A DNA stretch of 64,000 bases from an uncultured Nitrosomonadales bacterium (GTDB lineage Bacteria; Pseudomonadota; Gammaproteobacteria; Burkholderiales; Gallionellaceae): assembly GCA_903892645.1 (NCBI GenBank), contig CAITJF010000152.1:2205-66204 (forward strand), read 5' to 3'. The notes beneath the pieces were generated by a model. That model was not told where the DNA came from and did no database searches. It was given only the letters and a program-made list of their open reading frames with translations. The translations under genes were made by a program, and so were the position numbers. This document shows, in pieces, positions 27,503-48,178 of this stretch (positions are counted from its first letter, which is position 1; each line of letters starts with the position of its first letter).

Positions 27503-27562
27503 AAAATATCCGCGCCAAAGTCGCGAGAAATTGGTGTTCCTTCGTGGCGAGACTCTTTGTGT

Positions 27563-28985: not shown

Positions 28986-29456
28986 TCAATTCAGTAACCG
29001 CGCCCTGATTTCAGCGAGAATTCTGGGAGGGGATAATGACCTTAAATCAAAAGGCGGCAACTCCAGTGCATCCAGAGTATTTTTCACCAGCAGGCCAAGC
29101 TCGGTATCGCCTTCCATACACAGGCGGCGGCTGAAAAAAAGTGTATCCGGATCTTCCTTGCGCAGGGCAAGCATCAGAAAATCATAGGCGCTGGCGCTGA
29201 TGGTCAAGTCCGGCTCCCTGATGCGTCGGCAGGCAACCAGGCCTTTAGGGGTGAGGGTGAAATGATAAGCCACCCCGGCATCGGTCACCCGGATGCTGAT
29301 GAGCTTGTCCTGCAGGGGTTGCATCACTTCAGAGCGTAAAGCGCCACCCACTGCCAGATTAACCGCTTGAACAAACAGCAAGGTCTGCGGATACTTTGGC
29401 AACACGGACAGAATATCGCTGATTGGTTTGGGAAGAAGAAAAGGCTGGTTGCTCAT
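28986..29456 (-). CDS. ubiT: SCP2-domain ubiquinone biosynthesis accessory factor UbiT (YhbT-like)
   Basis: 156 aa. SCP2 sterol-carrier-like sequence ([20 protein letters not shown]) directly downstream of the ubiU-ubiV pair. Confidence 0.75.
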
Positions 29457-29537
29457 AATATCTGTTTGGTTGGTGTCTTCTCAAGGCGTTCAATTCCTAT
29501 TTGCTAAGTATAATCCCCTTTCAACCATTGCGGCATC

Positions 29538-30449
29538 TCATTCATGTTGCACGGCGCTGGCGAGGAACATCTGCTCCATCCCCGGACGTCCATGCCAGTA
29601 GCCGTTGCAGGCTGCTTCCGGCATCACGCTTTCCATTTGTTGCATGGCGATTTCGGGGCTTGTCCGTTGCTCTATGCAGTCGCGGAACTGGCGGATAATT
29701 TCTGCGCTGTGTTCGGCTTGCGGGCTGATGCGCAGCACGTCCACACCGGCATTGCGGAGGGTGTCCAGATCGCCGAGCAAGTTGTACATCAGGGCGGACT
29801 GGGTCTGTGTGCCGTTGATCACCAGGAATGGTTTACCTTCGCGGGTGCGCATGGTCTTGCCGTCTGGGTCATCAATGCAGAGAAAACGGCAATCGTCCTT
29901 GGGCAGGTTGTGAAAGCGCGCGGTGAAACAGCGCGAAGAAAAAGCCAGCGGTAATCTGCCATAGGAGAACACTTCCGTTTCCAGTCCCGCAGGCCGCGAT
30001 TGCTGTAGCGGCTGTAGTCCTTCAAGCGACATTTCTACCGGCATGACCCAGCGCTTGGCGCCGAGAGATGCGATCAGTTGCAGAGTCTGCTGGTTGTAAA
30101 TATTGAGATAAGGCCCGGCAATGAATGGCATGCGCCCCGCCAGGCGGTGAACGGCACCCATGTCATTGGCTTCCACCATGAAGTCGCTATTTTCCGCAAT
30201 TTTGCGTAGCGACTTCAGGTCGGATTCGGACTCGATCAATGTCAGGGTGGAGAGAACCACTGTCTTGCCGGCGGCGGCAAGCATCTTCGCTATTTCCAGC
30301 CAGTCTGGCAGGCGCATGATATGGCGCCGCGAGCAAACCGTTTCTCCGAGATAAACGATATCTACCGGAGCAGCGGCGATTTCTACATAGAATTCCTGTA
30401 GCTTTTCCTGCGTCCAGTAATAAAGAATAGGGCCGAGCGAGAGCTTCAT
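29538..30449 (-). CDS. ubiV: U32-family O2-independent ubiquinone hydroxylase subunit UbiV (YhbV-like)
   Basis: The N-terminus [21 protein letters not shown]...[12 protein letters not shown] closely parallels E. coli YhbV/UbiV as recalled. Confidence 0.8.
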
Positions 30450-30459
30450 GGTTTCCTCA

Positions 30460-31473
30460 TTATTTCCATGGCCGGTGATATGCGCCCAAGGTGTGTTGCT
30501 GGCCTTCGGAGACTTTGCCCAGTTCGACAGTCCATGCGGGTTTGACGGAAAACCCCCCGGGGTTTTTCATGCATTGGTCAATCGCCTCGCGCCAGACACG
30601 AGTGACTTGCCCCACATAGGCCGGGCTTCTCTGCCGCCCTTCGATCTTGAGGCCGCGCACTTTGATGCGCAGCAGTTCCGGCAGCAGTTCCATGGTGTTC
30701 AGGCTGGTAGGTTCTTCCATGGCGTAGTAGGTTTCTCCTTCCACCTCGAAGCGTCCCTTGCACAGGGTGGGATAGCCAGTGTTTTCATCATCGGCGTAGC
30801 GGTCGATGAGTACGCCGTTGAGGCGCGATTCCAGGCCTTGGGCGGTCTTCTGCCAGCGTACGGCTTTGGGCGGCGAGCATACGCCGCAGTTGTTGGGGGA
30901 TTCGCCCGTGACATAGGAGGAAAGTGAACAGCGCCCTTCGACCATGACGCACAGCCCGCCGAAGCCAAAGAGTTCCAGTTCCACCGGCGTGCCGGCGGCC
31001 AGTTCTTCAACCTGGGCAAATGACAGCACGCGCGGCAATACTGCGCGACGGATGCCAAAATACTCGTGGTAGAAATTGATCGCCTCGTAATTGGTGGCGG
31101 AACCCTGCACCGAGAGATGGAGGTGCAACTGGGGATGGGTCCTCATGGCATATTGCATGAGGCCGGGGTCGGCCAGGATGATCGCGTCCATGCCATTATC
31201 GGCGGCCTGGTCTATCGCCTTCGTCCAGCGCTCCCAGCCATGAGACTTGGGGTAGGTATTCAGCGCCAGAAATACTTTCGCACCTTTTTCATGCGCATAT
31301 TCGACACCCGCGCGCGCATTTGCCGCATCGAAATTCAGCCCGGTGAAGTTGCGTGCATTCGTGTCGTCGCGAAAGCCGAGATAGACGCAGTCCGCACCGT
31401 TGTCTACGGCCACTTTCAGCGCCGGCAGGCTGCCTGCCGGGCACACCAGTTCCAGTTTGTATTCAGGCGGCAT
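30460..31473 (-). CDS. ubiU: U32-family O2-independent ubiquinone hydroxylase subunit UbiU (YhbU-like)
   Basis: The likely start is [43 protein letters not shown] at 31473 (the track ORF begins at 31530). Peptidase U32 family. Confidence 0.8.
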
Positions 31474-32464
31474 AAGGGATTTTCTCTTGTTCAAGCGACA
31501 GCTTGGCAAATTCGCCTTGGCGATGGCCACGGCGTTTCAGTTCAAACTCGATCCCATTCAGGATGTTCCACTTTTGCGAACACCAGGATGGAGCAAGCAG
31601 GATGTCTTTTGAGGCAGTGCCGGTGACGCGGTGGTAGACGATATGGGGCGGGGTGCACTCGATCAGGTCAGCCGCGATGCGGATGTAGTCGGCCACTTCC
31701 AGTGGCTGATATTCGCCGCGCCGCCACTCGGCGGCCAGCACGGTATTTTTGACCACATGCAGCGGATGCAGTTTAAGGCCGTCTGTTCCCAAGGCAAGCA
31801 CGGTATCGAGCGAGGAGTGGTAATGGTGTTCCGTTTCTCCGGGAAGGCCGATGATCAGGTGAGTGCATACCGGGATGCCGCGTTTTCTTGCGGCTATTAC
31901 CGTTTTCTCATATTCCTTAAGTCCATGGCCGCGGTTCACCCGCTTGAGAGTCTCGTCAAAGGCTGATTGCAGGCCGAGTTCCAGCCATACCACCAGCCCG
32001 CGCCGCTGATAATCCACCAGCAAATCCAGCACCGCTTCAGGAACGCAGTCAGGGCGCGTGCCGATGGACAGGCCTGCCATATCCGGCTCGGATAATGCTT
32101 CTTCATAGAGTGCTGCCAGTTCGGCGACATCGGCGTAGGTGTTGGTATAGGCCTGAAAATAGGCAAGGAAGCGACGCGCCCGGGTGCGTTTGCCAATAGC
32201 GTGTTTGCCGCTTCTGATTTGCTCGGAAAGTGAAGGCGGGGTGCGCCCATTGGGGCTGAAAGAGGCATTGTTGCAGAAGGTGCATCCTCCCATCCCCTTG
32301 GCGCCATCGCGGTTGGGGCAGGTAAGGCCTGCATCAAGCGCGATCTTGTGCACCCGCTCGCCATGCTGCTGCAACATGTGTTGCCCGAAGGTAAGGATAT
32401 AGTCAGAAAGTGCCATTGATCCGGCACAGTTCGTGAGTGGTGAGCGGAGTAATGGCACCCGCAA
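31463..32464 (-). CDS. TIGR01212-type radical SAM protein (YhcC-like)
   Basis: LTCPNRDGAKGMGGCTFCNN cluster motif. The start may be the internal Met at 32416. Its stop lies 8 nt after the ubiU ATG, an 11-nt overlap. Confidence 0.75.
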   Translation of the reverse strand: MRVPLLRSPLTNCAGSMALSDYILTFGQHMLQQHGERVHKIALDAGLTCPNRDGAKGMGGCTFCNNASFSPNGRTPPSLSEQIRSGKHAIGKRTRARRFLAYFQAYTNTYADVAELAALYEEALSEPDMAGLSIGTRPDCVPEAVLDLLVDYQRRGLVVWLELGLQSAFDETLKRVNRGHGLKEYEKTVIAARKRGIPVCTHLIIGLPGETEHHYHSSLDTVLALGTDGLKLHPLHVVKNTVLAAEWRRGEYQPLEVADYIRIAADLIECTPPHIVYHRVTGTASKDILLAPSWCSQKWNILNGIEFELKRRGHRQGEFAKLSLEQEKIPYAA

Positions 32465-33120: not shown

Positions 33121-33729
33121 TCAGTTGAGCAATAGCTTAATATCATGCACAAGGGCATCCGCTCCTTGTCCATAAGCCGCGTGCAGGCGCAATCTCCCCG
33201 ACGGGTCGTAAATATAGGTTCCGACCGAGTGATCCAACGTATAGTTGGCGGGGCTCTTACCCGGTTCCTTGCTATAAAACAGGTGGTATTCCTTGGCGGT
33301 CTCGGCAATTTGTGCCGGCGTACCGTAGAGGCCCATGAATTTTGGATTAAACGAGGGAACGAATTGAGCCAGAAGTGCCTGAGTATCGCGCTCGGGGTCC
33401 AGGGTTATGAACAGAACCTGCACCTTGTCCGCGTCGGGACCGAGGCGTTTCATTACGAGAGCAAGCTCCGATAATGTATTCGGGCAGGCTTCAGGGCAAT
33501 GCGTGTACCCGAAAAACAATACAACAACTTTACCCTTAAAGTCAGATAAGGTGCGTGGTTTTCCCTGATGATCGGTCAACCGGAAATCTTTTCCGGAGTC
33601 GATCCCGGTAACATTGGTAGACTTGAACGGTTGTGCCGCTTGCGGCTGATTGCAGCCGCACAGGGATGCTATGGCCAGGCTCACAAGTAAAGATTTCAGG
33701 AACGGTTTAAAAAAAGCTGCTCTTGTCAT
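33121..33729 (-). CDS. SCO1/SenC-family copper chaperone / thiol-disulfide protein
   Basis: 202 aa. Lipoprotein-like signal (LAIASLCGC), the CPEAC (CxxxC) motif and a downstream His (LDHSVGTY). Confidence 0.85.
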   Translation of the reverse strand: MTRAAFFKPFLKSLLVSLAIASLCGCNQPQAAQPFKSTNVTGIDSGKDFRLTDHQGKPRTLSDFKGKVVVLFFGYTHCPEACPNTLSELALVMKRLGPDADKVQVLFITLDPERDTQALLAQFVPSFNPKFMGLYGTPAQIAETAKEYHLFYSKEPGKSPANYTLDHSVGTYIYDPSGRLRLHAAYGQGADALVHDIKLLLN

Positions 33730-34357: not shown

Positions 34358-34867
34358 CTATTTTTCCCAGCATGCCTTGGCAAGTTGCGGCAGGTAAGCG
34401 GATAATCCGGCAACGGCGAACTCGGTTTGTACGGGAGCGCTACCGAAGGGAGAGAATTCGAATATAAGTTTTCGAGACTGGGCAAGCCGCTTGATTAACG
34501 TAGCTGCATCGCGTGCGGAAATCGTTGCATTGGTCACTTCGCGCCAGCTCTGGGGGAAGGGTTTGTTGTCATCAAGCTGGAGGTTTACGAGTTGCTTATC
34601 AACCACGGTAACCTCCAGTGCCATCCCGGTTTCAACGTAAACAGATGCTTTTCCTTTTACACATTGAATGGTCAGGACGGGAAAGGAAGTTTTCATCCAG
34701 CCCTCTACCGCCTTTTCTGCCTTAAGCGATAAAGTCAGAGATTCTTCAGCTGTCGAAGGTGTGGGTGAGACCTGCCACTTAGACGATTGCGGTGCGGCTT
34801 CAGCGGCAATCGGGATGGCACAAACGAATAGCAGCAAGAAAGTGCGAACGTATGGGGTAAGCCACAT
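34358..34867 (-). CDS. Hypothetical periplasmic protein
   Basis: The likely start is MWLTPYVRTFLLLFVCAIPIAAEA at 34867 (signal peptide); the track ORF starts at 34927. The C-terminal pattern F.V.GL...L..L..AC is reminiscent of VasI-like proteins, but this is unverified. Confidence 0.5.
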   Translation of the reverse strand: MWLTPYVRTFLLLFVCAIPIAAEAAPQSSKWQVSPTPSTAEESLTLSLKAEKAVEGWMKTSFPVLTIQCVKGKASVYVETGMALEVTVVDKQLVNLQLDDNKPFPQSWREVTNATISARDAATLIKRLAQSRKLIFEFSPFGSAPVQTEFAVAGLSAYLPQLAKACWEK

Positions 34868-35102
34868 AACATCTTTTTTGCAAAACATTTTTTGGCTACA
34901 GTGCTCTTTGTTAAAAAGGGGGGGCATCAGGTTATTCCTCAGTTTTTCGGGATGAGCCAGTGTACCGCAAGAAATATATAATGGTCACGGCGCATATCTG
35001 GTTGTTACGATTTGGTAGCGGTTCGGCGTCTTTAAAAGCTTAAAGCTAAAGGCTGCCATCTCTATGAAAGTTCCTCTCAAGAGCGCTCCATTTTCATGAA
35101 AC

Positions 35103-35116
35103 TTGATATACATCAA
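35103..35116 (+). promoter_or_regulatory. Perfect FNR box TTGAT-ATAC-ATCAA (class II-type position)
   Basis: TTGATATACATCAA. A -10-like GAAAAT sits at 35139-35144, 22 nt after the box. This is the only strong signal upstream of the heme-copper cluster. Confidence 0.7.
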
Positions 35117-35206: not shown

Positions 35207-35347
35207 ATGGAAGCAACAAAGCAAGGCGGGATTGAAACAACCGGTGGGCAAGGAACGCGGATGTCCAGCTGGCGCATGAGTTTCATAGGTGTGATGTGCT
35301 TAGTGGTTTTTTACGTAGTTTGGGGTATCGTCAAAATGATTTTGTAG
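35207..35347 (+). CDS. 46-aa single-TM micro-protein (below ORF-track cutoff)
   Basis: GGAGA lies 7 nt upstream of the ATG. Peptide: MEATKQGGIETTGGQGTRMSSWRMSFIGVMCLVVFYVVWGIVKMIL. Confidence 0.4.
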   Translation: MEATKQGGIETTGGQGTRMSSWRMSFIGVMCLVVFYVVWGIVKMIL

Positions 35348-35407: not shown

Positions 35408-35557
35408 ATGTCAAATGAAGAGAGTTTTAGACCCACCGTCTTGCAACGCATCCTCGACGACATCAATTTTATGATGTGTTTGGGGTTGGTTATACCGACG
35501 GTGTTTTACACATTGTGGGGAGTCATGGAAGTTGCCACCATCCCATTGGGCAAATAA
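35408..35557 (+). CDS. 49-aa single-TM micro-protein (possible small oxidase subunit)
   Basis: GGGAGG lies 6 nt upstream of ATG 35408. Peptide: MSNEESFRPTVLQRILDDINFMMCLGLVIPTVFYTLWGVMEVATIPLGK. The track lists a TTG-extended form from 35369. Confidence 0.45.
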   Translation: MSNEESFRPTVLQRILDDINFMMCLGLVIPTVFYTLWGVMEVATIPLGK

Positions 35558-35609: not shown

Positions 35610-36155
35610 ATGGGTTATTCATTCACAGCACCAGCAAAGAATTGGGCGACCGAACCGATCGAGCGTACCGAAATCTTATGGATCGTTATCGCAGGTTCGT
35701 GGTGTCTTTTCATGTTTTGCTGGATGATTGCCTGGCACTGGATTGGCAATCAAAACATGGCCAACGAAGCGTATAAAACTACGCCGGAAGCTTACGCTAA
35801 AAAAGTCGAGGAATTCACCGCGAAATATACCGTGCGCCAAGACAAGAGCGATCCCAGTTTGCCGGTGGTGGCTCCGCCTCCCGGCAGTGACGTTTATCTG
35901 GCGGCAAGCCGTTGGCAATGGCGTCCGATAGTGGAGTTCCAGAAGGGTAAATCCTACCGTGTGCATATTTCGTCACTGGATTGGGATCATGGCTTTTCCC
36001 TGCAGCCGGAGAATATCAATTTCACGGCTTATCCCGGATACGATGCAGTTGTGACCATGACACCCAACAAGACTGGCACATTTGGCATTGTGTGTAATGA
36101 ATATTGCGGCATCGGTCACCACACCATGCTCGGCAGAATTTACGTAAAGGAGTAG
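35610..36155 (+). CDS. Heme-copper oxidoreductase subunit II, ba3-like, CuA centre intact
   Basis: 181 aa, one N-terminal TM helix and a cupredoxin domain. CuA ligands: H127 (DHGF) and C162-x3-C166-x3-H170-x2-M173 in CNEYCGIGHHTMLGRIYVKE. Confidence 0.85.
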   Translation: MGYSFTAPAKNWATEPIERTEILWIVIAGSWCLFMFCWMIAWHWIGNQNMANEAYKTTPEAYAKKVEEFTAKYTVRQDKSDPSLPVVAPPPGSDVYLAASRWQWRPIVEFQKGKSYRVHISSLDWDHGFSLQPENINFTAYPGYDAVVTMTPNKTGTFGIVCNEYCGIGHHTMLGRIYVKE

Positions 36156-36158
36156 GAA

Positions 36159-37856
36159 ATGGCTATAACTACCGCACAATCACCCTTTCGCACGGACCCG
36201 CTGACCGGTCTGCGCATTGACCTGACCGCCCAAGCACTGGTGAAGGTCAATGCAGTACTCGCCGTCGTGTTCCTGCTGGTCGGCGGAACTGCCGGCTTGC
36301 TGGTCGCCTTGACGCGCTGGCCGGCGGTGCACTTGCTGCCCGCTGACCTGTTCTATATGGCGCTCACCGCACACGGCATTGTAGCGCTCATGGTGTGGAT
36401 CATCTTTTTCGAAATAGCGGTGCTGTATTTCGTAGCCTCGACCTTGCTTAGCTGCCGGTTGGCGGCGCCAAAACTGGCTTGGACGCAGGTTGTGCTGATG
36501 GTTGTTGGCGCAGCCATGACTTTTGTCGCAATCCTGCAAGGCGATTCCAGCGTCATGATGACGTCTTATGTGCCGATGAATGCCGCCCCGCATTTCTACC
36601 TGGGCTTGATCCTGTTTGCGGTGGGTGCGCTAATTGGTTGCGGCGTATTCTGGGGTACATTAGTGATCGCTGCGGAAGAAAAGACCTACGAAGGCACGTT
36701 GCCGCTGACGGTGTATGGTTGCGTAATCGCCACGATTATCGCGGTTTTCACCATCGCTTCTGGTGCCATCATCCTGATCCCGACGTTCCTGTGGTCGCTG
36801 GGCCTGATCAAGAGCATAGACCCGATGATGTATCGCGTAATCTGGTGGGCGTTCGGCCACTCGTCGCAGCAAATCAACGTGACCGCCCATATTACGATTT
36901 GGTACACGGTTGCCGGTCTGGCGTTCGGCGCCAAGCCGATGTCGGAAAAAGTGAGCCGTACCGCTTTCCTGTTGTATATCTGCTTCCTGCAATTTGGTTC
37001 GGTGCACCACTTGTTGTCCGATCCGGGATTGAGCTCGGCGTGGAAAATCTTCAACACCAGCTACATGATGTATCTGGCGGTGTTGGCCAGCTTGATTCAC
37101 GGTCTGACCGTGCCTGGTTCGATCGAAGTGGCGCAGCGCAGGAGCGGGTTGAACAATGGCCTGTTCGAGTGGCTGCGTAAATGTCCCTGGGGCAATCCGG
37201 TATTCTCCTCCACGATCCTGTCGATCATCATTTTCGGCTTTATCGGCGGCGTTACCGGGGTGGTGATGAGTGTGGAGCAAGTTAATATGATCATCCACAA
37301 CACCATCTATGTGCCGGGGCATTTCCACGGTACGGTGGCGGGCGGTACTACGCTGGCTTTCATGGGACTGACCTACTATCTGATCCCGGTGCTGTTTCAG
37401 CGCCAAGTCATCATGAAGCCGTTGGCAGCCTTGCAGCCTTGGTTGTTTGGCATCGGGACATCGATATTCGCGATTGCCATAATGGGTGCGGGAACCTTGG
37501 GTGTGCCACGCCGTCATTGGGATGTCACTTTTGCTGGGCAGGCGCTGGGTTTTGAATGGCCCGGTATGGCGCAAATGATGTTAGCCATCGGCGAAATAGG
37601 CGGTGTCATAGCGGTGTTGGGTGGCGCATTGTTCTGCGTGATCGTGGTGGGTTCCATCCTGATCGGCGAGCCGGTTCCAGCAAATGCCAAGAATATCGTG
37701 GCGCCTCCCGCCGATGCGGGCGGTCACAAGGAAATCGGTATGGGTGGCTTCGAAGCCCCAGGTACCTTTATCTTGGCCATGGTGCTGTTTGTAACCCTCG
37801 TGCTCTACTACTTCGTCAACTTCAAGTATCTGGCCACTCTGTGGACATTGACCTGA
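36159..37856 (+). CDS. Heme-copper oxidoreductase subunit I, B-family-like but lacking the cross-link tyrosine (candidate NO reductase)
   Basis: 565 aa. Ligand set H72, H234, H283/H284 and H388/H390. The residue four positions after the first CuB His is Gln (GHSSQQ, codon 36870-36872) rather than the Tyr of GHPxVY. Confidence 0.85.
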   Translation: MAITTAQSPFRTDPLTGLRIDLTAQALVKVNAVLAVVFLLVGGTAGLLVALTRWPAVHLLPADLFYMALTAHGIVALMVWIIFFEIAVLYFVASTLLSCRLAAPKLAWTQVVLMVVGAAMTFVAILQGDSSVMMTSYVPMNAAPHFYLGLILFAVGALIGCGVFWGTLVIAAEEKTYEGTLPLTVYGCVIATIIAVFTIASGAIILIPTFLWSLGLIKSIDPMMYRVIWWAFGHSSQQINVTAHITIWYTVAGLAFGAKPMSEKVSRTAFLLYICFLQFGSVHHLLSDPGLSSAWKIFNTSYMMYLAVLASLIHGLTVPGSIEVAQRRSGLNNGLFEWLRKCPWGNPVFSSTILSIIIFGFIGGVTGVVMSVEQVNMIIHNTIYVPGHFHGTVAGGTTLAFMGLTYYLIPVLFQRQVIMKPLAALQPWLFGIGTSIFAIAIMGAGTLGVPRRHWDVTFAGQALGFEWPGMAQMMLAIGEIGGVIAVLGGALFCVIVVGSILIGEPVPANAKNIVAPPADAGGHKEIGMGGFEAPGTFILAMVLFVTLVLYYFVNFKYLATLWTLT

Positions 37857-37971: not shown

Positions 37972-38829
37972 ATGGGAACAGCTATTAAACAAGTTACCGA
38001 TTTGTTCAAGTTAAGGATCGGTATCGTCATCAGCTTCACTGCATTGGCTGGTGTGGCGGTAACGCCGGGTTCGCTGGCTGGCTGGAAAATTGTATTGTTG
38101 GGGCTTGCGGTGTTGATTTCTTCAGCCAGCGCGGGTGCATTCAATCAATACGTTGAGCGGGATATTGACGTGCGCATGGCGCGCACCTGTAAGCGTCCCT
38201 TTGTCACCGGCACGCTTCAGCATGGCCCGTTCTGGCTGTGCGTGATTCTTGTCATGCTGGCAGGTTCGGTGTCGGCGGCAGTAGTGGCGCTCAATTCCGT
38301 CTCGGCCCTGTTTGTATTTTTGGGGGCGTTTTTCTATGCTGTGGTTTACACAGTTTGGTTGAAACGTCGTACCTGGATGAACATCGTGATCGGCGGATTG
38401 GCCGGTAGTTTCGCGGTGCTGGCAGGAGCCGCTGCGGTAAACCCGCAGCTAAGCTCGCAAGCGTTGATTCTGGCAGGAATATTGTTTTTGTGGACACCAC
38501 CGCATTTCTGGAGCTTGGCAATCGCCTATCACAAGGATTACGATGCCGCAAAAGTCCCCATGTTGCCGGTGGTGGTGGGTGACGAACGCGCTGCACGCAT
38601 TATTTTTGGCAGCACTGTGCTGCTGGTGGCGACTTCGTTGATGCCGGTTTTCTACGGCATGGGCTGGATTTATTTCATTGGTGCGGCGAGCGGCGGTGCG
38701 TATTTTCTGCTGAAAAGCGTGCAGTTGATGCGTATGCCAAATCGTGCAACAGCGATGTCATGCTTCCATGCTTCACTCATGCAATTGAGTCTATTGCTGA
38801 CCGCAGCGATGATAGACGCGTCTTTGTAG
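37972..38829 (+). CDS. ctaB: Protoheme IX farnesyltransferase (heme O synthase)
   Basis: The likely start is MGTAIKQVTDLFKLRIGIVISFTALAG at 37972 (track ORF from 37879). UbiA-family motif NQYVERDIDVRMARTCKRPFVTG. Confidence 0.88.
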   Translation: MGTAIKQVTDLFKLRIGIVISFTALAGVAVTPGSLAGWKIVLLGLAVLISSASAGAFNQYVERDIDVRMARTCKRPFVTGTLQHGPFWLCVILVMLAGSVSAAVVALNSVSALFVFLGAFFYAVVYTVWLKRRTWMNIVIGGLAGSFAVLAGAAAVNPQLSSQALILAGILFLWTPPHFWSLAIAYHKDYDAAKVPMLPVVVGDERAARIIFGSTVLLVATSLMPVFYGMGWIYFIGAASGGAYFLLKSVQLMRMPNRATAMSCFHASLMQLSLLLTAAMIDASL

Positions 38830-38837
38830 TTTTGCCG

Positions 38838-39686
38838 ATGCGTCTATGGCTGTTGCTGGGCCTGTTGGGGATGGCGGGAGCGGCGTTTGCCTCAGGGGGA
38901 AACGTTCAACCCGCAGCACCCGTTAAATTCGATCAAAAATCTGCATTGCAATTCAGTCAAAGTGTAGTCGGCCAGCAGATGGCCGACTATGCCTTGCTTG
39001 ACCGCAACGGTCAGGCAGTCAGGCTTTCCAGTTATCGCGGCAAGCCGGTGCTGGTGAGCTTTATTTATACCGGTTGTTCGGTAACCTGCCCCGCCACCAC
39101 ACAATATCTTGCCAAAGCGGTCAAATACATGCAGAACGCTCTTGGTGCTGACAGCTTCCAGGTGTTGACTGTCGGCTTCAATGCCCCTTGGGATTCGCCA
39201 CAGGCGATGCGCGATTTTGCTTCACGGCAAAATATCAAGTTGCCACACTGGGAGTTTCTGAGTGCAGATGCGGCAACCATGCAGAATTTCACGCGAGACC
39301 TCGGATTCAGCTACGCCTATTCGGTCACTGGTTTCGATCATATTTCCCAGCTCACCTTGCTTGACCAGGAAGGCAAGGTTTATCGCCAAATATACGGTGA
39401 TAATTTCGAGTTGCCTCAGATGGGTGAGCCGTTAAAAAAACTGGTGGGCAATGTGCAAACCCAGTATCCCGGTTGGGAGGGTTTGAGCAACCGCATTCGC
39501 TTGTTCTGTACCGTTTATGATCCCAGCACGGGATCCTATACCACCGATTATTCGTTTTTCTTCGGCATATTTATCAGCTTGGTGATGACTTATTACTTCG
39601 TCAAATGGATTGTCCGTGAATGGCGCCGCGCCCCACGCCGCAACCCTCCCAAAGCCAATGAGGCAGTTGAAATAAAACCATCCTAG
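38838..39686 (+). CDS. SCO1/SenC-family protein with C-terminal membrane helix
   Basis: The likely start is MRLWLLLGLLGMAGAAFA at 38838. It has the thioredoxin-like CSVTC (CxxxC) motif, a conserved His (FDHISQ) and the C-terminal TM FFFGIFISLVMTYYFV. Confidence 0.8.
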   Translation: MRLWLLLGLLGMAGAAFASGGNVQPAAPVKFDQKSALQFSQSVVGQQMADYALLDRNGQAVRLSSYRGKPVLVSFIYTGCSVTCPATTQYLAKAVKYMQNALGADSFQVLTVGFNAPWDSPQAMRDFASRQNIKLPHWEFLSADAATMQNFTRDLGFSYAYSVTGFDHISQLTLLDQEGKVYRQIYGDNFELPQMGEPLKKLVGNVQTQYPGWEGLSNRIRLFCTVYDPSTGSYTTDYSFFFGIFISLVMTYYFVKWIVREWRRAPRRNPPKANEAVEIKPS

Positions 39687-39863: not shown

Positions 39864-41795
39864 GTGGTCATGATCAAGTTGATACAGCGTATTGGGCAGG
39901 GTCTGTTGCTGCGTGTGGAAAAAGGATTCAATGCCATTTTCGGCGCGGAGCTGAATCCGTTGTACCAGCTTGGCGCCATTTTGTTTTTCCTGTTCTGGGT
40001 GGTATTGGGGAGCGGGTTTTATCTTTACGCGTTTTATCGCACCGGAGTAAGCGAGGCGTATTCTTCGGTCGATAAAATCACCCACGAACAATGGTATCTG
40101 GGCGGTATCATGCGCAGCCTGCACCGCTATGCCTCGGATGGCATGGTGGTCTTGGTGCTGGTGCACATGGCGCGCAATTTTGTGATGAACCGCTTGAGCG
40201 GCTTCCGTGCTTTTTCCTGGCTTACCGGTATCGTGCTCCTGCTACTGTTAATTATTTCCGGCATCAATGGCTACTGGCTGGTGTGGGATCAGCTTGCGCA
40301 ATTCGTTGCCGTGGCCAGCACGGAATTCCTGGACTGGCTGCCGGTTTTCGTCTCCCCATTGGTGCGCAATTTCCTGACCCCGGACAGCATCAATGACCGT
40401 TTCTTCTCGTTGCTGTCTTTCATGCATTTGGGCATTCCGCTTGGGATGCTGATTTTCATCATGGTTCACACCCAACGGGTGAGCGGAGCCAAGACCCAGC
40501 CTTCGAGGCCACTTGCGATTGGACTAGGCCTTACGCTGCTGGTGCTGGCTCTGGTTAAGCCAGCTTTGAGCCAGGGCGGCCAGGCTGACCTGAGCACGAT
40601 TGCCGCGCAAATCAAGCTGGACTGGTTTTTCATGGCGGTTTACCCACTGATTTATATGTGGTCGCCGAACCAGTTGTGGGCGCTGGTTGGTGGCTTCCTG
40701 GCTTTTCTCCTGCTGTTGCCATTGCTGGCGCGCACCAAACGCATGAGCGAAGGTTTCCAGATCACCACTGCGCCGAGCATGCGCACCTTTACGGCCAAGC
40801 CGGGTGAAACTGTATTGGAAGCAGCGTTGCGTCAGGATATTCGGCTGCCTTACACATGTCGCGATGGAGCCTGCGGAAATTGCAAGGGCACCATTCTGCA
40901 TGGGGCGGTTGATTATGGCGTGCATCAGGAAGATGCCTTGAGCGAGCAGGACAAGCAGGCAGGCAAGGCGTTGTTCTGCTGCGCCACGCCGTTGTCCGAT
41001 ATGGAAATTGAATATTACGAAAATGAAACACTGAAACAAGTCCCAGTGAAGCTCATGCAGTGCCGTGTACATAAGATGGTGCGCGCCACGCCGGATGTGA
41101 TGGTGCTGTATTTGAAAATGCCGCAGGGCAGTAAACTGCAATTTTTTGCCGGCCAATATCTCGACATTCTGCTGGAGGATGGTGCACGCAGAAGCTTCTC
41201 GTTCGCCAATGCCCCGCACGATGACGGATTTATCCAATTGCACATCCGTCTAATTCCAGGCGGCAAGTTCACCAATCATGTGTTCACGCAAATGAAGGAA
41301 GGCGACGAGCTGAGCTTTGAAGGCCCGCTTGGTACTTTCTTCCTGAACGAGAAAAGTGATATGCCGATAATTTTTGTGGCCGGCGCTACTGGCTTCGCAC
41401 CAGTGAAAAGTATGTTGGATCACGCTTTTTACACTGGCTCCAAGCGCCGTATGCTGTTGTACTGGGGGGTGAAAATGCGCAAAGATTTATACATGGCCGA
41501 TTTGCCGGAGCTCTGGCAACGGGAGCACGACAATTTTACTTTTATACCGGTGCTGTCCGAGCCGGGGCCGGATGATAACTGGCAGGGGCGTACCGGCTTG
41601 GTGCATGAGGCCATTTTGCAGGATCACCCTGACCTGAGTGGCTTCCAGGTTTATGCTTGCGGCTCGATGCTAATGGTACAGGCAGCGCGTCCGGCTTTTC
41701 TCGCGCAGGGGTTGCCGGAAAATGCATGTTTTTCGGATGCCTTCCTGTTGCCTACACATAAGGTAGCGCAACCTGCCGTGGAGGTGCAACCATGA
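39864..41795 (+). CDS. Fusion protein: cytochrome b-type membrane domain + plant-type 2Fe-2S ferredoxin + FNR-like FAD/NAD(P)H reductase
   Basis: Start at GTG 39864 or ATG 39870. Four heme-ligand His sit in cytochrome b context (SLHRYASD, LVHMARNF, FMHLGIP, MVHTQR). Also present: CRDGACGNC...CC, then RSFSF, GPLG and GATGFAP motifs. Confidence 0.8.
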   Translation: MVMIKLIQRIGQGLLLRVEKGFNAIFGAELNPLYQLGAILFFLFWVVLGSGFYLYAFYRTGVSEAYSSVDKITHEQWYLGGIMRSLHRYASDGMVVLVLVHMARNFVMNRLSGFRAFSWLTGIVLLLLLIISGINGYWLVWDQLAQFVAVASTEFLDWLPVFVSPLVRNFLTPDSINDRFFSLLSFMHLGIPLGMLIFIMVHTQRVSGAKTQPSRPLAIGLGLTLLVLALVKPALSQGGQADLSTIAAQIKLDWFFMAVYPLIYMWSPNQLWALVGGFLAFLLLLPLLARTKRMSEGFQITTAPSMRTFTAKPGETVLEAALRQDIRLPYTCRDGACGNCKGTILHGAVDYGVHQEDALSEQDKQAGKALFCCATPLSDMEIEYYENETLKQVPVKLMQCRVHKMVRATPDVMVLYLKMPQGSKLQFFAGQYLDILLEDGARRSFSFANAPHDDGFIQLHIRLIPGGKFTNHVFTQMKEGDELSFEGPLGTFFLNEKSDMPIIFVAGATGFAPVKSMLDHAFYTGSKRRMLLYWGVKMRKDLYMADLPELWQREHDNFTFIPVLSEPGPDDNWQGRTGLVHEAILQDHPDLSGFQVYACGSMLMVQAARPAFLAQGLPENACFSDAFLLPTHKVAQPAVEVQP

Positions 41796-42304
41796 GCCAG
41801 CCGCTGAAATACTTGGGGCAAGGGCTAGCCTACGCGCTGTTCGCCGTGGTGCTTGGTTATTTCTCCACTTCACCGGAGTACGCGCACTTGCCGGCGGATT
41901 CCGCGCTGCTTAAGCTGAGTTTCAACCACGCGGCCCAGCGAAAGAAACCGTGCCACGAGCGCACCGACGAGGAAATGGCCAAGCTGGCAAAAAATATGCG
42001 GATACGCAAGGATTGTCCGCGCGAACGCTCCGACGTGGTGGTGGAGTTGGAGATGGACGGCAAGCAGTTGTACCATGTCGTGCTGCACCCGCCCGGCCTG
42101 TCGCATGACGGTGCCGCTTCAATATATCGCCGCCTGCCGGTGCCGGCAGGCCCCCATCGTTTCGTGGCGCGCCTGAAGGATATGGAGGGGGGCGATTTCA
42201 GCTTTGTGCACGAGGAAAACATTACTCTTGGCGCCGGCAAGGTAATGGTGATTGATTTCAAGGCCGACGTTCCCGGCGCCCCCGGCTTTATGTTTAAGAG
42301 TTAG
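41792..42304 (+). CDS. Membrane-anchored hypothetical protein, translationally coupled to the preceding gene
   Basis: Its ATG overlaps the upstream TGA (ATGA at 41792-41795). It has an N-terminal TM (LAYALFAVVLGYF) and a ~130-aa soluble domain with two Cys. No family recognised. Confidence 0.6.
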   Translation: MSQPLKYLGQGLAYALFAVVLGYFSTSPEYAHLPADSALLKLSFNHAAQRKKPCHERTDEEMAKLAKNMRIRKDCPRERSDVVVELEMDGKQLYHVVLHPPGLSHDGAASIYRRLPVPAGPHRFVARLKDMEGGDFSFVHEENITLGAGKVMVIDFKADVPGAPGFMFKS

Positions 42305-42310
42305 GACAAC

Positions 42311-43717
42311 ATGACTATTCCCGTGGAAGCGAACTCTCCTTATGATGCGCCGCCGGATGTTGGCGGTGTGTATGCGTTGCCCACGCCGCATCAAGCCAGC
42401 CAGCGCTTGGCTGCCGGCTGGCTGTGGCTGAGTTTTGCCGCACTGGTGGGGGCAGGTTTTTTTGCTCTGCTGGTAGTGATGGCGCGTACACCTTATGTGT
42501 CCGATATTTTTCCCACGGTAGATTTTTTCCGTAGCGCCCTGGTGGTGCATGTGGATTTGTCGGTGCTATTGTGGTTCTTTGCTTTCGCCGGTGTGCTGTG
42601 GGGTGCAGCCTCCCCTCCAAAGTGGATGCCCCTCGGTTGGGTAGCGCTGTTGCTGGCGGTGGTAGGCGTGATAGTGGTTGTGGTTTCGCCGTTTGTCAGC
42701 ACCGGCGGGCCGCTCATGAATAACTATATTCCGGTGCTGGAAAACAGGGTGTTCCTTACCGGTTTGTTCCTGTTTGGTTGCGGTATCGGGTTGCTTGCCT
42801 TGCGTGGCCTGCTGACGATTCCCCTCACCGGGTTTGGTGCAAATAGAGATGGCGGCATACTTTGTTTCGGCCTTTATACTGCCGCAGTGGCGACGACGAT
42901 GGCGCTCATCGCATTTTCCTGGGCATTCGCAACCATTCCGTTTTTTGTGCGCGGTCTTCCTTATTACGAGGCGCTGTTTTGGGGTGGTGGGCATGTGATG
43001 CAATTCGCCTATACCCTGCTGATGTTGGTTGGCTGGTTGTGGCTGTCCTCTGAATGCGGTGCCCAGGTGCCATTAACTCCGCGCATATCACTGTTCCTGT
43101 TCGCCTTGGGGGTTGCACCGGTGCTGTTTACACCGCTGATCTACGCCCTTTATGAGACCAATACCGGCGATAACATGGGAATGTTCATCTGGATGATGAA
43201 AATCGGTGGCAGCCTGGCGGCTGTGCCGATTGGGCTGGCGGTAGCGTATGCAATGGGGAACCGTGGCTATCCTGACCCTTCGAAGCGTCCGCTGTTTGCT
43301 GCCTTGCTGTGTTCGATGGTTTTGTTTGCGGTGGGCGGTGGCATTAGCCTCATGATCAAGGATAGCAACACCATCATCACCGCGCATTATCATGGTACCG
43401 GGGGCGCTGTGAGCCTGGCTTTCATGGGGCTGGCTTTTGTGCTGCTGCCCAAGCTGGGGTTTCGTGCGCCTGATTTGAAGCTTGCCAGCTGGCAGCCTTA
43501 TGTGTACGGTATCGGGCAGTTGCTGCACATCATCGGGCTGCTGTGGTCGGGTGGGTACGGCGTGCAACGCAAGGTCGCTGGAGCAGCCCAGGAATTGCAC
43601 AGTTTCGGGCAGGTCGCCGGAATGGGATTGATGGGAATAGGCGGGTTAATCGCCGTGATCGGCGGCCTGATGTTTCTGGTGGTGGTGTTTCGTGCAATGA
43701 GGGGGCGAACACGTTAG
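42311..43717 (+). CDS. Heme-copper subunit-I-like 12-TM protein lacking two CuB histidines
   Basis: 468 aa. It retains H80 (VVHVDLSVLLWFF), H228 (WGGGHVMQF) and H359/H361 (AHYHGT). The HH position, 49/50 residues after H228, is I277-Y278 (codons 43139-43144). Confidence 0.75.
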   Translation: MTIPVEANSPYDAPPDVGGVYALPTPHQASQRLAAGWLWLSFAALVGAGFFALLVVMARTPYVSDIFPTVDFFRSALVVHVDLSVLLWFFAFAGVLWGAASPPKWMPLGWVALLLAVVGVIVVVVSPFVSTGGPLMNNYIPVLENRVFLTGLFLFGCGIGLLALRGLLTIPLTGFGANRDGGILCFGLYTAAVATTMALIAFSWAFATIPFFVRGLPYYEALFWGGGHVMQFAYTLLMLVGWLWLSSECGAQVPLTPRISLFLFALGVAPVLFTPLIYALYETNTGDNMGMFIWMMKIGGSLAAVPIGLAVAYAMGNRGYPDPSKRPLFAALLCSMVLFAVGGGISLMIKDSNTIITAHYHGTGGAVSLAFMGLAFVLLPKLGFRAPDLKLASWQPYVYGIGQLLHIIGLLWSGGYGVQRKVAGAAQELHSFGQVAGMGLMGIGGLIAVIGGLMFLVVVFRAMRGRTR

Positions 43718-43804
43718 CGCCGCAGGCGGCCATTACGCCACGCTTTTCGGCTTTGTAGCTCGTTACGACTTCTCTTATTTTGACAGCAACGTAGTTTGCA
43801 TAGA

Positions 43805-45382
43805 ATGCGCAAATATCTACAAAACTTGTTGCTGCGTCTGGAAAACGCATTCAATGCGCCGTTCGGTCAGGCATTGAATCCTTGGTACCACCTCGGCGCG
43901 ATCACCTTTTATCTGTTCTGGATCGTGGTGGTAAGCGGCGTTTATCTCTATATCTTTTACCGAACCGGGGTGGATGAAGCCTACCAGTCGGTCGAACGCC
44001 TTACCCATGATCAATGGTATGCCGGCGGCGTGATGCGCAGCCTGCACCGCTATGCTTCTGACGGCATCGTGGTGACGATGCTGCTGCATATGCTGCGCAA
44101 TTTTATTACCGGACGTTTCCACAGCTTCCGCTGGTTTTCCTGGGTGAGCGGGGTTTTTCTGATCTGGCTGGTTTACACTTGCGGCATCAACGGCTACTGG
44201 ATGGTGTGGGACAGGCTGGCGCAATTCATTGCCGTGGGCACTGCGGAATGGTTCGATTGGATGCCGCTGTTCAGCCAGCCGCTGGCGCGCAACTTTCTCG
44301 TGCAAGGCGATGTCAATGATCGCTTCTTTGCACTGCTGTCGTTTGCCCACATCACCATTCCGCTGGTATTGCTGCTGTTCATGTGGATACATACCAAGCG
44401 CATGAACCACGCCGAAACCAACCCTCCCCTGCGCCTTGCGGTCGGCACGCTGCTTATGCTGCTGGCGCTGTCGCTGGTCAAGCCGGCGCTAAGCCACGCA
44501 CATGCCGATCTGGCGCTGTTGCCTGATGTGATCCGACTTGACTGGTTTTATCTGGCGCCGTATCCGCTGCTTTATATCTGGTCGCCTGGCGCGGTGTGGG
44601 TGTTGGTTGGCGGGATTACCGCGCTGCTCCTATTGGTGCCGTGGTTATTCAGGCCGCGCACGCGCCCTGCGGTGGCGGAGGTGCATCTGGACAATTGCAA
44701 CGGTTGTGCACGTTGCGCTGCCGACTGTCCTTATTCGGCCATTGTGATGCATCCGCGCCAGGACGGCAGGCCGCACCAATTACAGCCAGTGGTAGATCCG
44801 GACTTGTGCGCAAGTTGCGGCATTTGCGTCGGTGCCTGTCCATCTTCCATGCCGTTCCGCAGTAACGAACTGGTGAGCGGTATCGAGTTGCCGGATCAGG
44901 AGTTGGCGACGCTACGTGCAGGTATTGATCGTACACTGGCGGTGTTGCACGGCGATGCGCGCGTTATGGTGTTTGGCTGCGATTGTGCCTACGATGTGCA
45001 TGCATTGCAGTCGGAGGGAGTGGCGGCGCTTTCGCTCCCCTGCATCGGCATGCTGCCACCAGCGTTTATTGACTACGTGCTGCGCGACGCACGTGTTGAT
45101 GGGGTGATGGTTGCCGGTTGCCGTGAAGGGGATTGCCAATACCGTCTTGGCATCCGCTGGACGGAGTTGCGCCTGGCACGCCAGCGAGTACCGCATTTGC
45201 GCCAGCGAGTGCCACTTCAGCGTATCGAGTTTTGTTGGGCCGGCATACAGGATGATGAGCGGGCACGCGCGGAACTCGGCACTCTGCGTGCGCGGGTGGC
45301 GCAACTGCCGCGAGAAATAATCATGGAAGAGGATTCGCGAGAGCATGAACGCCAGTCCGGTGACAAAAACCAACCTGATTAA
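43805..45382 (+). CDS. Fusion protein: cytochrome b-type membrane domain + 2x[4Fe-4S] ferredoxin + MvhD/FlpD-like domain
   Basis: The likely start is ATG 43805 (MRKYLQNLLLRLENAF, parallel to its paralogue); the track ORF starts at 43796. The N-terminal half is a paralogue of 39864..41795 with the same four His. Then come CNGCARCAADCP and CASCGICVGACP, then FGCDC...LPCIGML...VAGCREGDCQYRLG. Confidence 0.8.
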   Translation: MRKYLQNLLLRLENAFNAPFGQALNPWYHLGAITFYLFWIVVVSGVYLYIFYRTGVDEAYQSVERLTHDQWYAGGVMRSLHRYASDGIVVTMLLHMLRNFITGRFHSFRWFSWVSGVFLIWLVYTCGINGYWMVWDRLAQFIAVGTAEWFDWMPLFSQPLARNFLVQGDVNDRFFALLSFAHITIPLVLLLFMWIHTKRMNHAETNPPLRLAVGTLLMLLALSLVKPALSHAHADLALLPDVIRLDWFYLAPYPLLYIWSPGAVWVLVGGITALLLLVPWLFRPRTRPAVAEVHLDNCNGCARCAADCPYSAIVMHPRQDGRPHQLQPVVDPDLCASCGICVGACPSSMPFRSNELVSGIELPDQELATLRAGIDRTLAVLHGDARVMVFGCDCAYDVHALQSEGVAALSLPCIGMLPPAFIDYVLRDARVDGVMVAGCREGDCQYRLGIRWTELRLARQRVPHLRQRVPLQRIEFCWAGIQDDERARAELGTLRARVAQLPREIIMEEDSREHERQSGDKNQPD

Positions 45383-46299
45383 CGCCTGCGCAGCCGGTAG
45401 TTAAGTGACACCAGAATGAGCAGCAGGAATGCCGCTGTGGCGTTATGAAGCAGCACCAGAAAAAGCGGCAGGCTGTATGCCACGGCGCTGATTCCCAGAG
45501 CGACTTGCAGCGTGAGCGCGGCGATCAGCAGCATGCCGCTGCGCCGCAAATTTTCCCGGATCAGGCAGGCTCCTAACCAGGCAAGATAACAAAACACCAG
45601 CAGCGCGGAGAAACGGTGCGCCATGTGCAAAGTCTGCTGCGCAGCACCCGGAATGAAGTTGCCGCCCTGTGGCACTTTCAACACCTGAAAAGGATTGAAG
45701 TCCGCCAGTGATGCGTGCTGTAGCCATCCATCGCAGCCGGATGGACCGGTGCAGCTTAAGGCAGCGAAACTCGCACTGACCATGCCCCCCAGCGTTATTT
45801 GTACCACGAGCAGCCCCAACCCCAGTGATACCCACCTGCGCAAACGTGAAGAGGCAGCGTATCGAGGCACGTATCCGAGATGTAATCGCCACAGCAGCGC
45901 CAGCATTCCCAGGCCGCCGAGCAGGTTGCCGAGCGCAACCGCTGGCAGGTGTGCGTTGTGCGTCCATTTGCCGAGCACTGCAAGGAAAGCCGTTAGCCCC
46001 AATAATGCCAGCGCAGGCGGAAAATCACCGGGTGCCACGCGGCGGCGGCGCCAGGCGAGTGAGGTAATGGCAAGGGCGGTAAAACCCATGGTGCTCGCCG
46101 CAATGCGGTGAGTGGTATTTATCCAGTTCGGATGGGGAGGGGCAAGGCCAGCCAGATTGTGTCCATAACATGCAGGCCGGTCGGGGCAGCCCAACCCGGC
46201 GCCAGTCAGGCGCATGTGGGCACTTAGCAAGATGATTATCGCCATTAGTGCGAAGGTGAACAGCACCAAGCCGTGGAATACGCGATTACCGTCAGCCAT
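45379..46299 (-). CDS. ctaA: Heme A synthase (COX15/CtaA family)
   Basis: 306-aa polytopic protein with N-terminal LLSAHMRLTGAGLGCPDRPACYG and paired His-containing helices. Its stop overlaps the convergent gene's stop (TTAA at 45379-45382). Confidence 0.8.
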   Translation of the reverse strand: MADGNRVFHGLVLFTFALMAIIILLSAHMRLTGAGLGCPDRPACYGHNLAGLAPPHPNWINTTHRIAASTMGFTALAITSLAWRRRRVAPGDFPPALALLGLTAFLAVLGKWTHNAHLPAVALGNLLGGLGMLALLWRLHLGYVPRYAASSRLRRWVSLGLGLLVVQITLGGMVSASFAALSCTGPSGCDGWLQHASLADFNPFQVLKVPQGGNFIPGAAQQTLHMAHRFSALLVFCYLAWLGACLIRENLRRSGMLLIAALTLQVALGISAVAYSLPLFLVLLHNATAAFLLLILVSLNYRLRRR

Positions 46300-46734: not shown

Positions 46735-47049
46735 TTACAGCGAAAGAATCCAACCCACTGTGGACTTTATTTCAGCATCGGTCATCTTGCCTTTTTGCGC
46801 TGGCATTGGCATGGTGCCCCATACTCCGGAGCCGCCTTCTGTTACCTTTTTGATCAGCTTGGCTTCGGCAGTAGCGTCACCTTTGTATTTTGCGGCCACT
46901 TCCTTATATCCTGGCCCGACGAGTTTCATGTCCACTGCGTGGCAGTTCAGGCAGCCGGCTTTTTTGGCGAGGTCTTTCCCATCTTCGGCAAATGCCGGTG
47001 CGCTGAGGAAACAAGCGGTAATTCCTGCAATGATCAAAACTCTTTTCAT
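46735..47049 (-). CDS. Soluble class I cytochrome c (c551/c552-type)
   Basis: The likely start is MKRVLIIAGITACFLSAPAFA at 47049 with a GGAGA Shine-Dalgarno. Heme motif CLNCH and distal Met in WGTMPMP. Confidence 0.88.
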   Translation of the reverse strand: MKRVLIIAGITACFLSAPAFAEDGKDLAKKAGCLNCHAVDMKLVGPGYKEVAAKYKGDATAEAKLIKKVTEGGSGVWGTMPMPAQKGKMTDAEIKSTVGWILSL

Positions 47050-47144: not shown

Positions 47145-47158
47145 TTGATGTAAATCAA
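47145..47158 (-). promoter_or_regulatory. Perfect FNR box TTGAT-GTAA-ATCAA upstream of the cytochrome c gene
   Basis: TTGATGTAAATCAA. On the gene strand a -10-like CAAAAT (47122-47117) lies 22 nt downstream of the box. Confidence 0.65.
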
Positions 47159-47318: not shown

Positions 47319-48053
47319 CTAGAGGAATTGCGGCGGCGGGCCGACGTAGGCTTGTAACCCAGGCAGATTATGAAGCTCCACCGATTTGTTGCGTATGTTA
47401 ATCAACCCGATCCCCTGGAAGTGTGACAGTGTGCGGCTGACCGTTTCCAGCTTCATCCCGAGATAGCTGCCGATTTCCTGGCGCGTCATGCGCAAATGGA
47501 ATGATGTGGGCGAGTAACCGCGTGTGGCAAAGCGCTGCGACAGGTTAAGCAGGAAGGCAGCCAAACGCTCTTCTGCGCGCATCGAGCCGAGCAGCAGCAT
47601 GATGCCTTGGTCACGCACGATCTCGCGGCTCAGGATGCGGTGCAGGTGGCGTTGCAGAGAGGGTAATTTGCGGCTGAGTTCCTCCAGTTGGCTAAAAGGG
47701 ATCTCGCATACCTCGCTGTCTTCCAAGGCGATCGCATCGCAGGTATGTGCATCGCTGCTGATGGCATCCAACCCGATGATTTCCCCTGCCATTTGGAAGC
47801 CGGTGACCTGTTCGCGGCCATCTTCGTGCAGCACTTGGGTCTTGAAAAAACCGGTACGGATGGCATATAGAGACTGGAATTTTGCGCCACTGCGGTATAA
47901 GTAATCGCCGCGCTGGTATGCGTGCTTCAGGCTGATTAAGTCATCCAGCTGCTCCAAGTCAGCCTCAGTGAGTTTCCTGGGCAGGCACAGCTCACGCAAG
48001 TTACAGCCGGAACAGGCGACTCTTAGCGGGGTTAGAGAGACGGATTTTTGCAC
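47319..48053 (-). CDS. fnr: FNR-type O2-sensing Crp/Fnr family regulator
   Basis: 244 aa. N-terminal Cys cluster ACSGCNLRELCLP plus an internal Cys. cNMP-like domain and the HTH recognition motif ETVSRTL (E--SR). Confidence 0.88.
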   Translation of the reverse strand: MQKSVSLTPLRVACSGCNLRELCLPRKLTEADLEQLDDLISLKHAYQRGDYLYRSGAKFQSLYAIRTGFFKTQVLHEDGREQVTGFQMAGEIIGLDAISSDAHTCDAIALEDSEVCEIPFSQLEELSRKLPSLQRHLHRILSREIVRDQGIMLLLGSMRAEERLAAFLLNLSQRFATRGYSPTSFHLRMTRQEIGSYLGMKLETVSRTLSHFQGIGLINIRNKSVELHNLPGLQAYVGPPPQFL

Positions 48054-48107
48054 GTTTTTCTTGAGTTAGGCAGCATAATTTTTATAGGCATAATTATGAC
48101 AGGGATT

Positions 48108-48121: not shown

Positions 48122-48178
48122 ACGCACGCCATGGCTTGCTAGCATAATCCGATAACTTAGTGAGCCAGCAGAATTATC

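Follow-up and report, generated by a model that had tools for sequence, protein, structure and literature searches.

Two adjacent genes in a 64-kb stretch of DNA (64,000 nucleotides, hereafter the window) from an uncultured Nitrosomonadales bacterium were analyzed, and they very probably encode a CuA-containing nitric oxide reductase of the eNOR family, derived from B-type (ba3-like) O2 reductases. The initial annotation of this DNA, made from the letters alone, had described a ba3-like heme-copper enzyme with glutamine in place of the cross-link tyrosine, and had favored an NO reductase or another non-oxidase function over a ba3 oxidase. That proposal is supported by the diagnostic glutamine, by the retained equivalent of ba3 S309 and by the match of the operon to a published one, and it is narrowed here to eNOR. 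The family, its signature, the activity of one enzyme and this operon layout in the Gallionellaceae are already established in the literature; the locus is a typical proteobacterial member, and the finding is real but ordinary and not new in kind.

Metal ligands and the active-site glutamine

Both open reading frames (ORFs) were recovered as annotated, at 35610-36155 for subunit II and 36159-37856 for subunit I. Subunit I has 565 amino acid residues and matches the Pfam family COX1 (E 3e-66). As had been claimed, all six metal-ligand histidines were present in the translation, namely H72, H388 and H390 for the hemes and H234, H283 and H284 for the active-site metal, and they aligned with the ba3 ligands by both HMMER and MAFFT. 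The closest PDB structures were the B-family oxidases of Aquifex (7DEG, E 4e-52) and Thermus (ba3, 1EHK, E 8e-46), and no solved eNOR structure was found among the PDB matches to subunit I. With an NCBIfam match to ccoN at E 5e-4 and best PDB matches of the B family, subunit I resembles the B family more than the cbb3-type oxidases; the public "cbb3-type" annotation is a naming artefact. An AF2 model of subunit I (pLDDT 79, pTM 0.82) gave TM-scores of 0.74-0.79 to B-family oxidase structures, and the fold and all metal ligands are shared with Thermus ba3 (1EHK, 1XME) and Aquifex 7DEG.

In the HMMER alignment to the PDB sequences, the helix VI motif GHSSQQ fell on the GHP(I/V)VY of the B-family oxidases, and an identical register was obtained with MAFFT; therefore, Q238 (codon CAA, 36870-36872) sits at the position of ba3 Y237, in agreement with the initial annotation. 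The cross-link position of cbb3 enzymes, six residues before the HH pair, is occupied by L277, and the nearest preceding tyrosine is the conserved Y273, ten residues before the pair, which bears out the earlier statement that no tyrosine occupies the helix VII site. The redox-active His-Tyr cofactor provides the fourth electron in O2 reduction, and O2 reduction is not expected of this enzyme because the cofactor is absent. Compared with the Thermus ba3 and Aquifex oxidases, Tyr237 is replaced by Gln238, GHP(I/V)VYFW by GHSSQQIN, T312 by histidine and Y244 by isoleucine, and the expected reaction would be the reduction of NO rather than O2.

The K-channel positions S309, T312, T315 and Y248 of ba3 are occupied by S311, H314, T317 and Y249 according to MAFFT, so that S309, T315 and Y248 are positions held in common with the Thermus enzyme. 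All four residues were invariant in the alignment of close homologues (A1).

Subunit II, a CuA-bearing cupredoxin of 181 residues, is encoded directly upstream of subunit I. The complete CuA site ascribed to it was seen by direct translation, with all five ligands (H127, C162, C166, H170 and M173) in place. The best solved relative was the Thermus ba3 subunit II (E 3.8e-16, HMMER against the PDB). The two proteins have a nearly identical C-terminus, and the ba3 ending given in the initial annotation was accurate, since HMMER aligned VCNEYCGIGHHTMLGRIYVKE of this subunit to ICNQYCGLGHQNMFGTIVVKE of the Thermus protein.

Distribution of the glutamine motif and assignment to eNOR

The motif GH[ST]SQQ was found in 117 of the 120 nearest homologues in the database (64-100% identity), and GH(S/G)(S/A)QQ in 82 of the 85 subunit I ORFs from related genomic loci. 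The nearest homologues belong to metagenome-assembled genomes (MAGs) of Nitrosomonadales and Gallionellaceae. When the Thermomicrobium roseum homologue was used as the seed, the same QQ motif was present in all 120 nearest proteins, most of them from Chloroflexi; this protein search returned matches from the Chloroflexi group only and no Rhodothermus sequence. Over an identity range of 93% to 40%, practically every homologue inspected showed the pattern GH-x-x-Q-Q-x-N. Judged by this conservation, Gln238 is not the product of chance or of a sequencing error.

Distant relatives, sought among 1.8 billion cluster representatives, split into three groups: sequences with QQ, sequences with QY (GHxxQYxN), and the classical B family with GHP(L/I/V)VYFW. 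The distant QQ sequences included P0121 (51% identity) and P0126 (40%), the latter from the haloarchaeon Natrarchaeobius. The QY sequences (P0123, P0129, P0135 and P0141; 36-44% identity) are the nearest relatives that bear the tyrosine, and those with a named source, P0129 and P0135, are archaeal (Hodarchaeales, Thermoproteota). They share Q237, N240, S311 and H314 with the present protein and differ from it in retaining the cross-link tyrosine; they are presumed to be O2 reductases and probably correspond to the "K family", whose clustering with eNOR has been reported (bioRxiv 10.1101/592808). Because Q237, N240, S311 and H314 are common to the tyrosine-bearing QY relatives, these residues predate the loss of the tyrosine.

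Copies with GH(G/S)(A/S)QQxN were also found by tblastn in a plasmid collection, in Thermus thermophilus (47% identity), T. roseum (44%) and Defluviimonas (58%). The other plasmid matches inspected, from Deinococcus, Geobacillus, Brevibacillus, Methylobacterium and Paraburkholderia, were tyrosine-bearing B-family oxidases, and no sequence of the asparagine type (sNOR- or bNOR-like) was found in this tblastn search.

A neighbour-joining tree was built from Kimura distances over 527 alignment columns and bootstrapped 200 times. In it, the QQ sequences were monophyletic with 94% bootstrap support; the QY group lay adjacent to them and the B family beyond. Haloarchaeal, Thermus, Chloroflexi and proteobacterial sequences made up the QQ clade, and the reference eNOR of Rhodothermus marinus lay outside the sampling. 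Since the QQ motif runs through Bacteria and Archaea within one clade, the loss of the tyrosine defines a large and old clade. In this wider clade S311, H314 and Y249 are retained, and position 317 is Thr, Ser or Ala.

Glutamine in the tyrosine column is the published diagnostic of eNOR, as given in Table A4 and the legend of Fig. 6 of PMC8756737 after Hemp and Gennis (2008). In the table of that paper, adapted from the same source, the residue four positions after the active-site histidine is Tyr in O2 reductases, Glu in cNOR and qNOR, Asn in sNOR and CuANOR (bNOR), Gln in eNOR and Asp in gNOR. The putative eNORs in its tree are defined by glutamine in this column, and the taxonomic spread of the QQ clade recovered here is the one given there for them. 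The absence of a tyrosine migrated to another helix has likewise been reported in the literature for the eNOR family. The eNOR of R. marinus reduced NO at 0.68 per second, and did not reduce O2 with any donor tried (PMC11214002). According to the same paper, the K-channel residues of B-type enzymes are kept in eNOR, including the S309 equivalent that is missing in sNOR (section 8), the low-spin heme of some eNORs is ligated by His and Lys (section 7), and an eNOR is expressed by the Gallionellaceae strain KS. eNOR uses heme As, an a-type heme, in both sites, and CtaA is encoded in many eNOR operons (PMC11214002; Murali et al., 2024).

With the eNOR family, the locus shares its B-family descent, the CuA subunit II, the six histidines, Gln for Tyr, K-channel-like residues with the S309 equivalent, an operon that encodes CtaB and Sco, and a nearby CtaA gene. 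The differences are not substantive: at position 244 the proteobacterial subgroup carries His, and other eNORs carry Met. The Thermus members of the QQ clade carry Lys in the column of H390, a ligand of the low-spin heme, which matches the published His/Lys variant of eNOR; here, by contrast, the second ligand is kept as His. The two genes are assigned to eNOR because they combine the published signature with a place among eNOR-holding taxa and with an operon identical in order to that of Ferrigenium straubiae KS (described below).

The sNOR family (the norSY-senC-orf1 type of ammonia-oxidizing bacteria) was suspected first, given the presence of a Sco gene and the affiliation with Nitrosomonadales. 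The host is a Nitrosomonadales relative, and a Sco/SenC gene and further membrane ORFs follow subunits II and I in a way that superficially resembles norSY-senC-orf1; Sco/SenC genes are indeed shared with sNOR clusters. Both sNOR (NorSY) and bNOR (qCuANOR of Bacillus azotoformans) are likewise B-family-derived NO reductases with a cupredoxin subunit II and without the Tyr cofactor. They differ in forming separate clades and in having Asn at the active site, whereas Gln was found here and in every homologue examined. In addition, sNOR is described in the literature as lacking the ba3 S309 equivalent and having a conserved Glu at another place in the channel, whereas S311 is kept in this protein and its close homologues, and the operon matches the one described for a Gallionellaceae eNOR. 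An sNOR is therefore rejected and considered highly improbable, a judgment made on published descriptions, as the comparison contained no verified sNOR sequence.

The enzyme might instead be a terminal oxidase of high affinity that operates at low O2 despite the missing tyrosine, a role that Sedlacek et al. (PMC6967387) proposed for the sNOR of N. europaea. Low-O2 induction is implied by an FNR box and an Fnr regulator at the locus, microoxic expression by the need for an O2-dependent heme A synthase, and the nearest solved structures are those of O2-reducing B-family oxidases; transcription of the F. straubiae enzyme likewise occurs under microoxic conditions (bioRxiv 10.64898/2026.01.22.701106). 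An oxidase is nevertheless very unlikely, given that the His-Tyr cofactor is absent with no conserved tyrosine at the cbb3-type alternative position, that the R. marinus eNOR failed to reduce O2, and that the nearest relatives keeping the tyrosine form a group separate from the eNOR-type clade defined by its loss.

Other heme-copper families were compared and rejected as well. A B-family (ba3) O2 reductase requires the helix VI tyrosine four residues past the CuB histidine, where GHSSQQ places Q238. A C-family cbb3 enzyme requires a tyrosine at the L277 position together with cytochrome c subunits, and a CuA cupredoxin is encoded here instead. In cNOR and qNOR, a Glu on FeB is accompanied by a cytochrome c subunit or a fused quinol site and no CuA, as against Gln, CuA and a B-family-like subunit I in this locus. 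In gNOR, one active-site histidine is replaced by Asp and subunit II has no CuA ligands, whereas the three histidines and all CuA ligands are present here.

Several points weigh against the assignment to eNOR. The node uniting the QQ and QY groups was weak (24.5% bootstrap) in what is a neighbour-joining tree only, and this tree was built without the experimentally characterized eNOR sequences of R. marinus and Magnetospirillum magnetotacticum; membership would thus rest on signature, taxa and operon. The absence of a tyrosine near the active-site metal is deduced at the sequence level, and the AF2 model, with its pLDDT of 79, is of only moderate quality. No nir, nar or nos genes were found within the window. 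A single eNOR has been assayed, with the low turnover quoted above (PMC11214002).

The probable eNOR operon and its proposed function

The features of the operon and its surroundings are listed in Table 1. In F. straubiae the eNOR operon runs in the order eNOR II, eNOR I, heme o synthase, sco1 and a scaffold protein, and it also includes a cytochrome b/[Fe-S]/FAD/NADH protein and a cytochrome b/[Fe-S] protein, both of which the authors term "rather unusual" (bioRxiv 10.64898/2026.01.22.701106). That operon was expressed, and its products were found in the proteome, during nitrate-reducing oxidation of Fe(II) (same preprint). In the window the order subunit II, subunit I, CtaB, Sco and cytochrome b/FeS/flavin fusion is that of the F. 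straubiae operon.

Table 1. Features of the putative eNOR operon and its surroundings in the window. Fractions give the presence of the gene among 64 related eNOR loci.
Position	Strand	Feature	Evidence and remarks
35103..35116		Perfect FNR/Crp-family box TTGATATACATCAA	About 90 bp upstream of the first small operon ORF
35207..35347	+	Predicted membrane peptide, 46 aa	Upstream GGAGAA ribosome-binding site; poorly conserved, 2/64; coding status uncertain
35408..35557	+	Conserved small membrane protein, 49 aa, preceding subunit II	61/64; no Pfam family
35610..36155	+	Putative eNOR subunit II, cupredoxin with CuA site	Pfam COX2; best PDB match Thermus ba3 subunit II
36159..37856	+	Putative eNOR subunit I, catalytic, motif GHSSQQIN	Pfam COX1, PDB matches, MAFFT, neighbour-joining tree, AF2 model
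36870..36872	+	Codon CAA for Gln238	Cross-link Tyr position (ba3 Y237); eNOR diagnostic residue
37879..38829	+	Heme O synthase (CtaB/CyoE)	TIGR01473, 272 bits against a cutoff of 210; 53/64
38760..39686	+	Sco1/SenC-type copper chaperone	PF02630, E 4e-13; 62/64
39864..41795	+	Fusion of cytochrome b, 2Fe-2S ferredoxin and FAD-/NAD-binding reductase domains	
41792..42304	+	Conserved protein, 170 aa, no family match	62/64; invariant H46, C54, C75, H122
42311..43717	+	Divergent subunit I paralogue, 468 aa	Pfam COX1, weak, E 4.6e-10; 52/64
43796..45382	+	Cytochrome b fused to 4Fe-4S dicluster and FlpD-like domain	Counterpart described in the F. straubiae preprint
45379..46299	-	Heme A synthase (CtaA/Cox15), convergent with the eNOR operon	PF02628, E 8e-40
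46735..47049	-	Cytochrome c551/c552, candidate electron donor to CuA	P. aeruginosa c551 match, E 1.6e-22
47319..48053	-	Fnr-type regulator with N-terminal Cys cluster C13, C16, C22, C105	NF008365, 258 bits against a cutoff of 228

The two small membrane ORFs probably open the operon, and the 49-aa protein may, by analogy with ba3 oxidases, be a small extra subunit. The true start of the Sco protein probably lies inside the listed ORF. In 62 of the 64 related proteobacterial loci, the Defluviimonas plasmid included, the eNOR genes are followed by one for a protein with a cytochrome b domain. The invariant His and Cys residues of the 170-aa protein could, from their pattern, form a metal-binding or maturation site. 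In a pairwise alignment, the subunit I paralogue was found to keep the heme ligands H80, H359 and H361 as well as H228, the equivalent of H234, while I and Y stand in place of the HH pair. It gave no NCBIfam match, and it may be the "eNOR scaffold protein" of the F. straubiae preprint.

These genes raise the idea that the proteobacterial eNOR is not a simple two-subunit enzyme and instead makes up the core of a conserved, roughly ten-gene module, with the paralogue lacking the HH pair, the two cytochrome b/FeS(/flavin) fusions and the 170-aa Cys/His protein as members; the module and this membership are jointly regarded as unlikely. Were the idea right, the module could link NO reduction to quinol or NAD(H) redox reactions, for instance in the reverse electron flow of lithoautotrophs, and would constitute a type of respiratory supercomplex that has yet to be characterized.

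The accessory genes (the HH-less paralogue, the cytochrome b fusions and the 170-aa protein), which recur in 52-62 of the 64 related loci, and the low turnover of the R. marinus enzyme (PMC11214002) would also suit a different substrate or a role within a larger complex, such as NO sensing, detoxification only, NO dismutation or the reduction of another small oxidant. This is considered extremely unlikely: nothing points to another substrate, a member of the family has been shown to reduce NO, and the Ferrigenium enzyme is expressed under denitrifying conditions (bioRxiv 10.64898/2026.01.22.701106).

For an eNOR, the following mechanism is proposed. Electrons from a periplasmic c-type cytochrome, plausibly the adjacent c551 whose gene carries an FNR box, would enter through CuA and pass to the low-spin heme (H72, H390) and from there to the binuclear site, composed of the high-spin heme (H388) and the metal (Fe or Cu) on H234, H283 and H284, where 2 NO + 2 e- + 2 H+ would be converted to N2O + H2O. 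Q238, together with the invariant Q237 and N240, would render the pocket more polar, and it may act as a fourth ligand of the metal, like the Glu of cNOR, or as its polar partner. Protons would be taken up from the cytoplasm through the K-channel analogue, which, as the conserved residues and a proposal in the literature suggest, would make NO reduction electrogenic. The cofactors would be matured by the dedicated heme O synthase, the neighbouring heme A synthase and the Sco chaperone, and synthesis would be induced at low O2, probably by Fnr or by a Dnr/Nnr-type regulator that recognizes the same box.

The recognition of eNOR enzymes alters metabolic reconstructions. The host, a relative of the iron-oxidizing Gallionellaceae, would be able to detoxify or respire NO and to emit N2O, and if the K-channel analogue works, energy would be conserved by NO reduction.

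FNR boxes and neighbouring genes

The perfect FNR box reported upstream in the initial annotation was confirmed at 35103-35116 (TTGATATACATCAA), but it lies about 500 bp from subunit II, ahead of the two small membrane ORFs (35207-35347 and 35408-35557). Only two perfect FNR boxes occur in the window, and 8 sites with at most one mismatch were found where chance would give 2.1. In 28 of 75 related loci, an FNR-type box (at most one mismatch) lay no more than 900 nt upstream of subunit II, compared with a background of 0.047 per 960 nt. A scan of the operon for promoters and terminators performed no better than on shuffled sequence.

The second perfect box (47145-47158) precedes a minus-strand unit of cytochrome c551, a 59-aa membrane ORF and CtaA, and in 34 of the 64 related loci CtaA is encoded close to eNOR. 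Heme A synthase requires O2, yet the CtaA gene at 45379-46299 is apparently placed under a low-oxygen regulator. The hemN gene, for the oxygen-independent coproporphyrinogen oxidase, is divergent from fnr (region 47319-49582), with a one-mismatch FNR box (48108-48121) ahead of it. Upstream of the eNOR operon, on the minus strand at 28986-31530, lie ubiT, ubiV and ubiU of O2-independent ubiquinone biosynthesis, all matching NCBIfam equivalogs above cutoff, and a radical-SAM gene (31463-32464) comes after the ubi genes. Taken together, the FNR boxes, the Fnr gene, hemN, ubiTVU and the Sco neighbours point to a low-oxygen regulon.

Also upstream of the operon, a second and canonical Sco1/SenC gene (33121-33729) and a gene for a 189-aa secreted protein (34358-34927) were found on the minus strand, and both recur beside eNOR in the closest MAGs (L001, L002). 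Farther upstream, a CusA/CusB-like RND efflux pair (24371-28978, minus strand) is made up of an AcrB-family pump and a membrane-fusion protein that bears a heavy-metal-binding domain. The pair suggests that copper or silver export is encoded in the vicinity of a copper-enzyme operon.

The T. thermophilus plasmid genes with GHGAQQVN (5303-7527 in L081 and 5286-7509 in L082) are annotated as cbb3-type or b(o/a)3-type oxidases. These eNOR-type genes are flanked by a multicopper oxidase-domain protein, a cytochrome c, a cytochrome P460, an Rrf2 regulator and a DUF542 protein; the neighbourhood relates to nitrogen oxides, and the multicopper oxidase-domain protein may be a putative NirK-type nitrite reductase.

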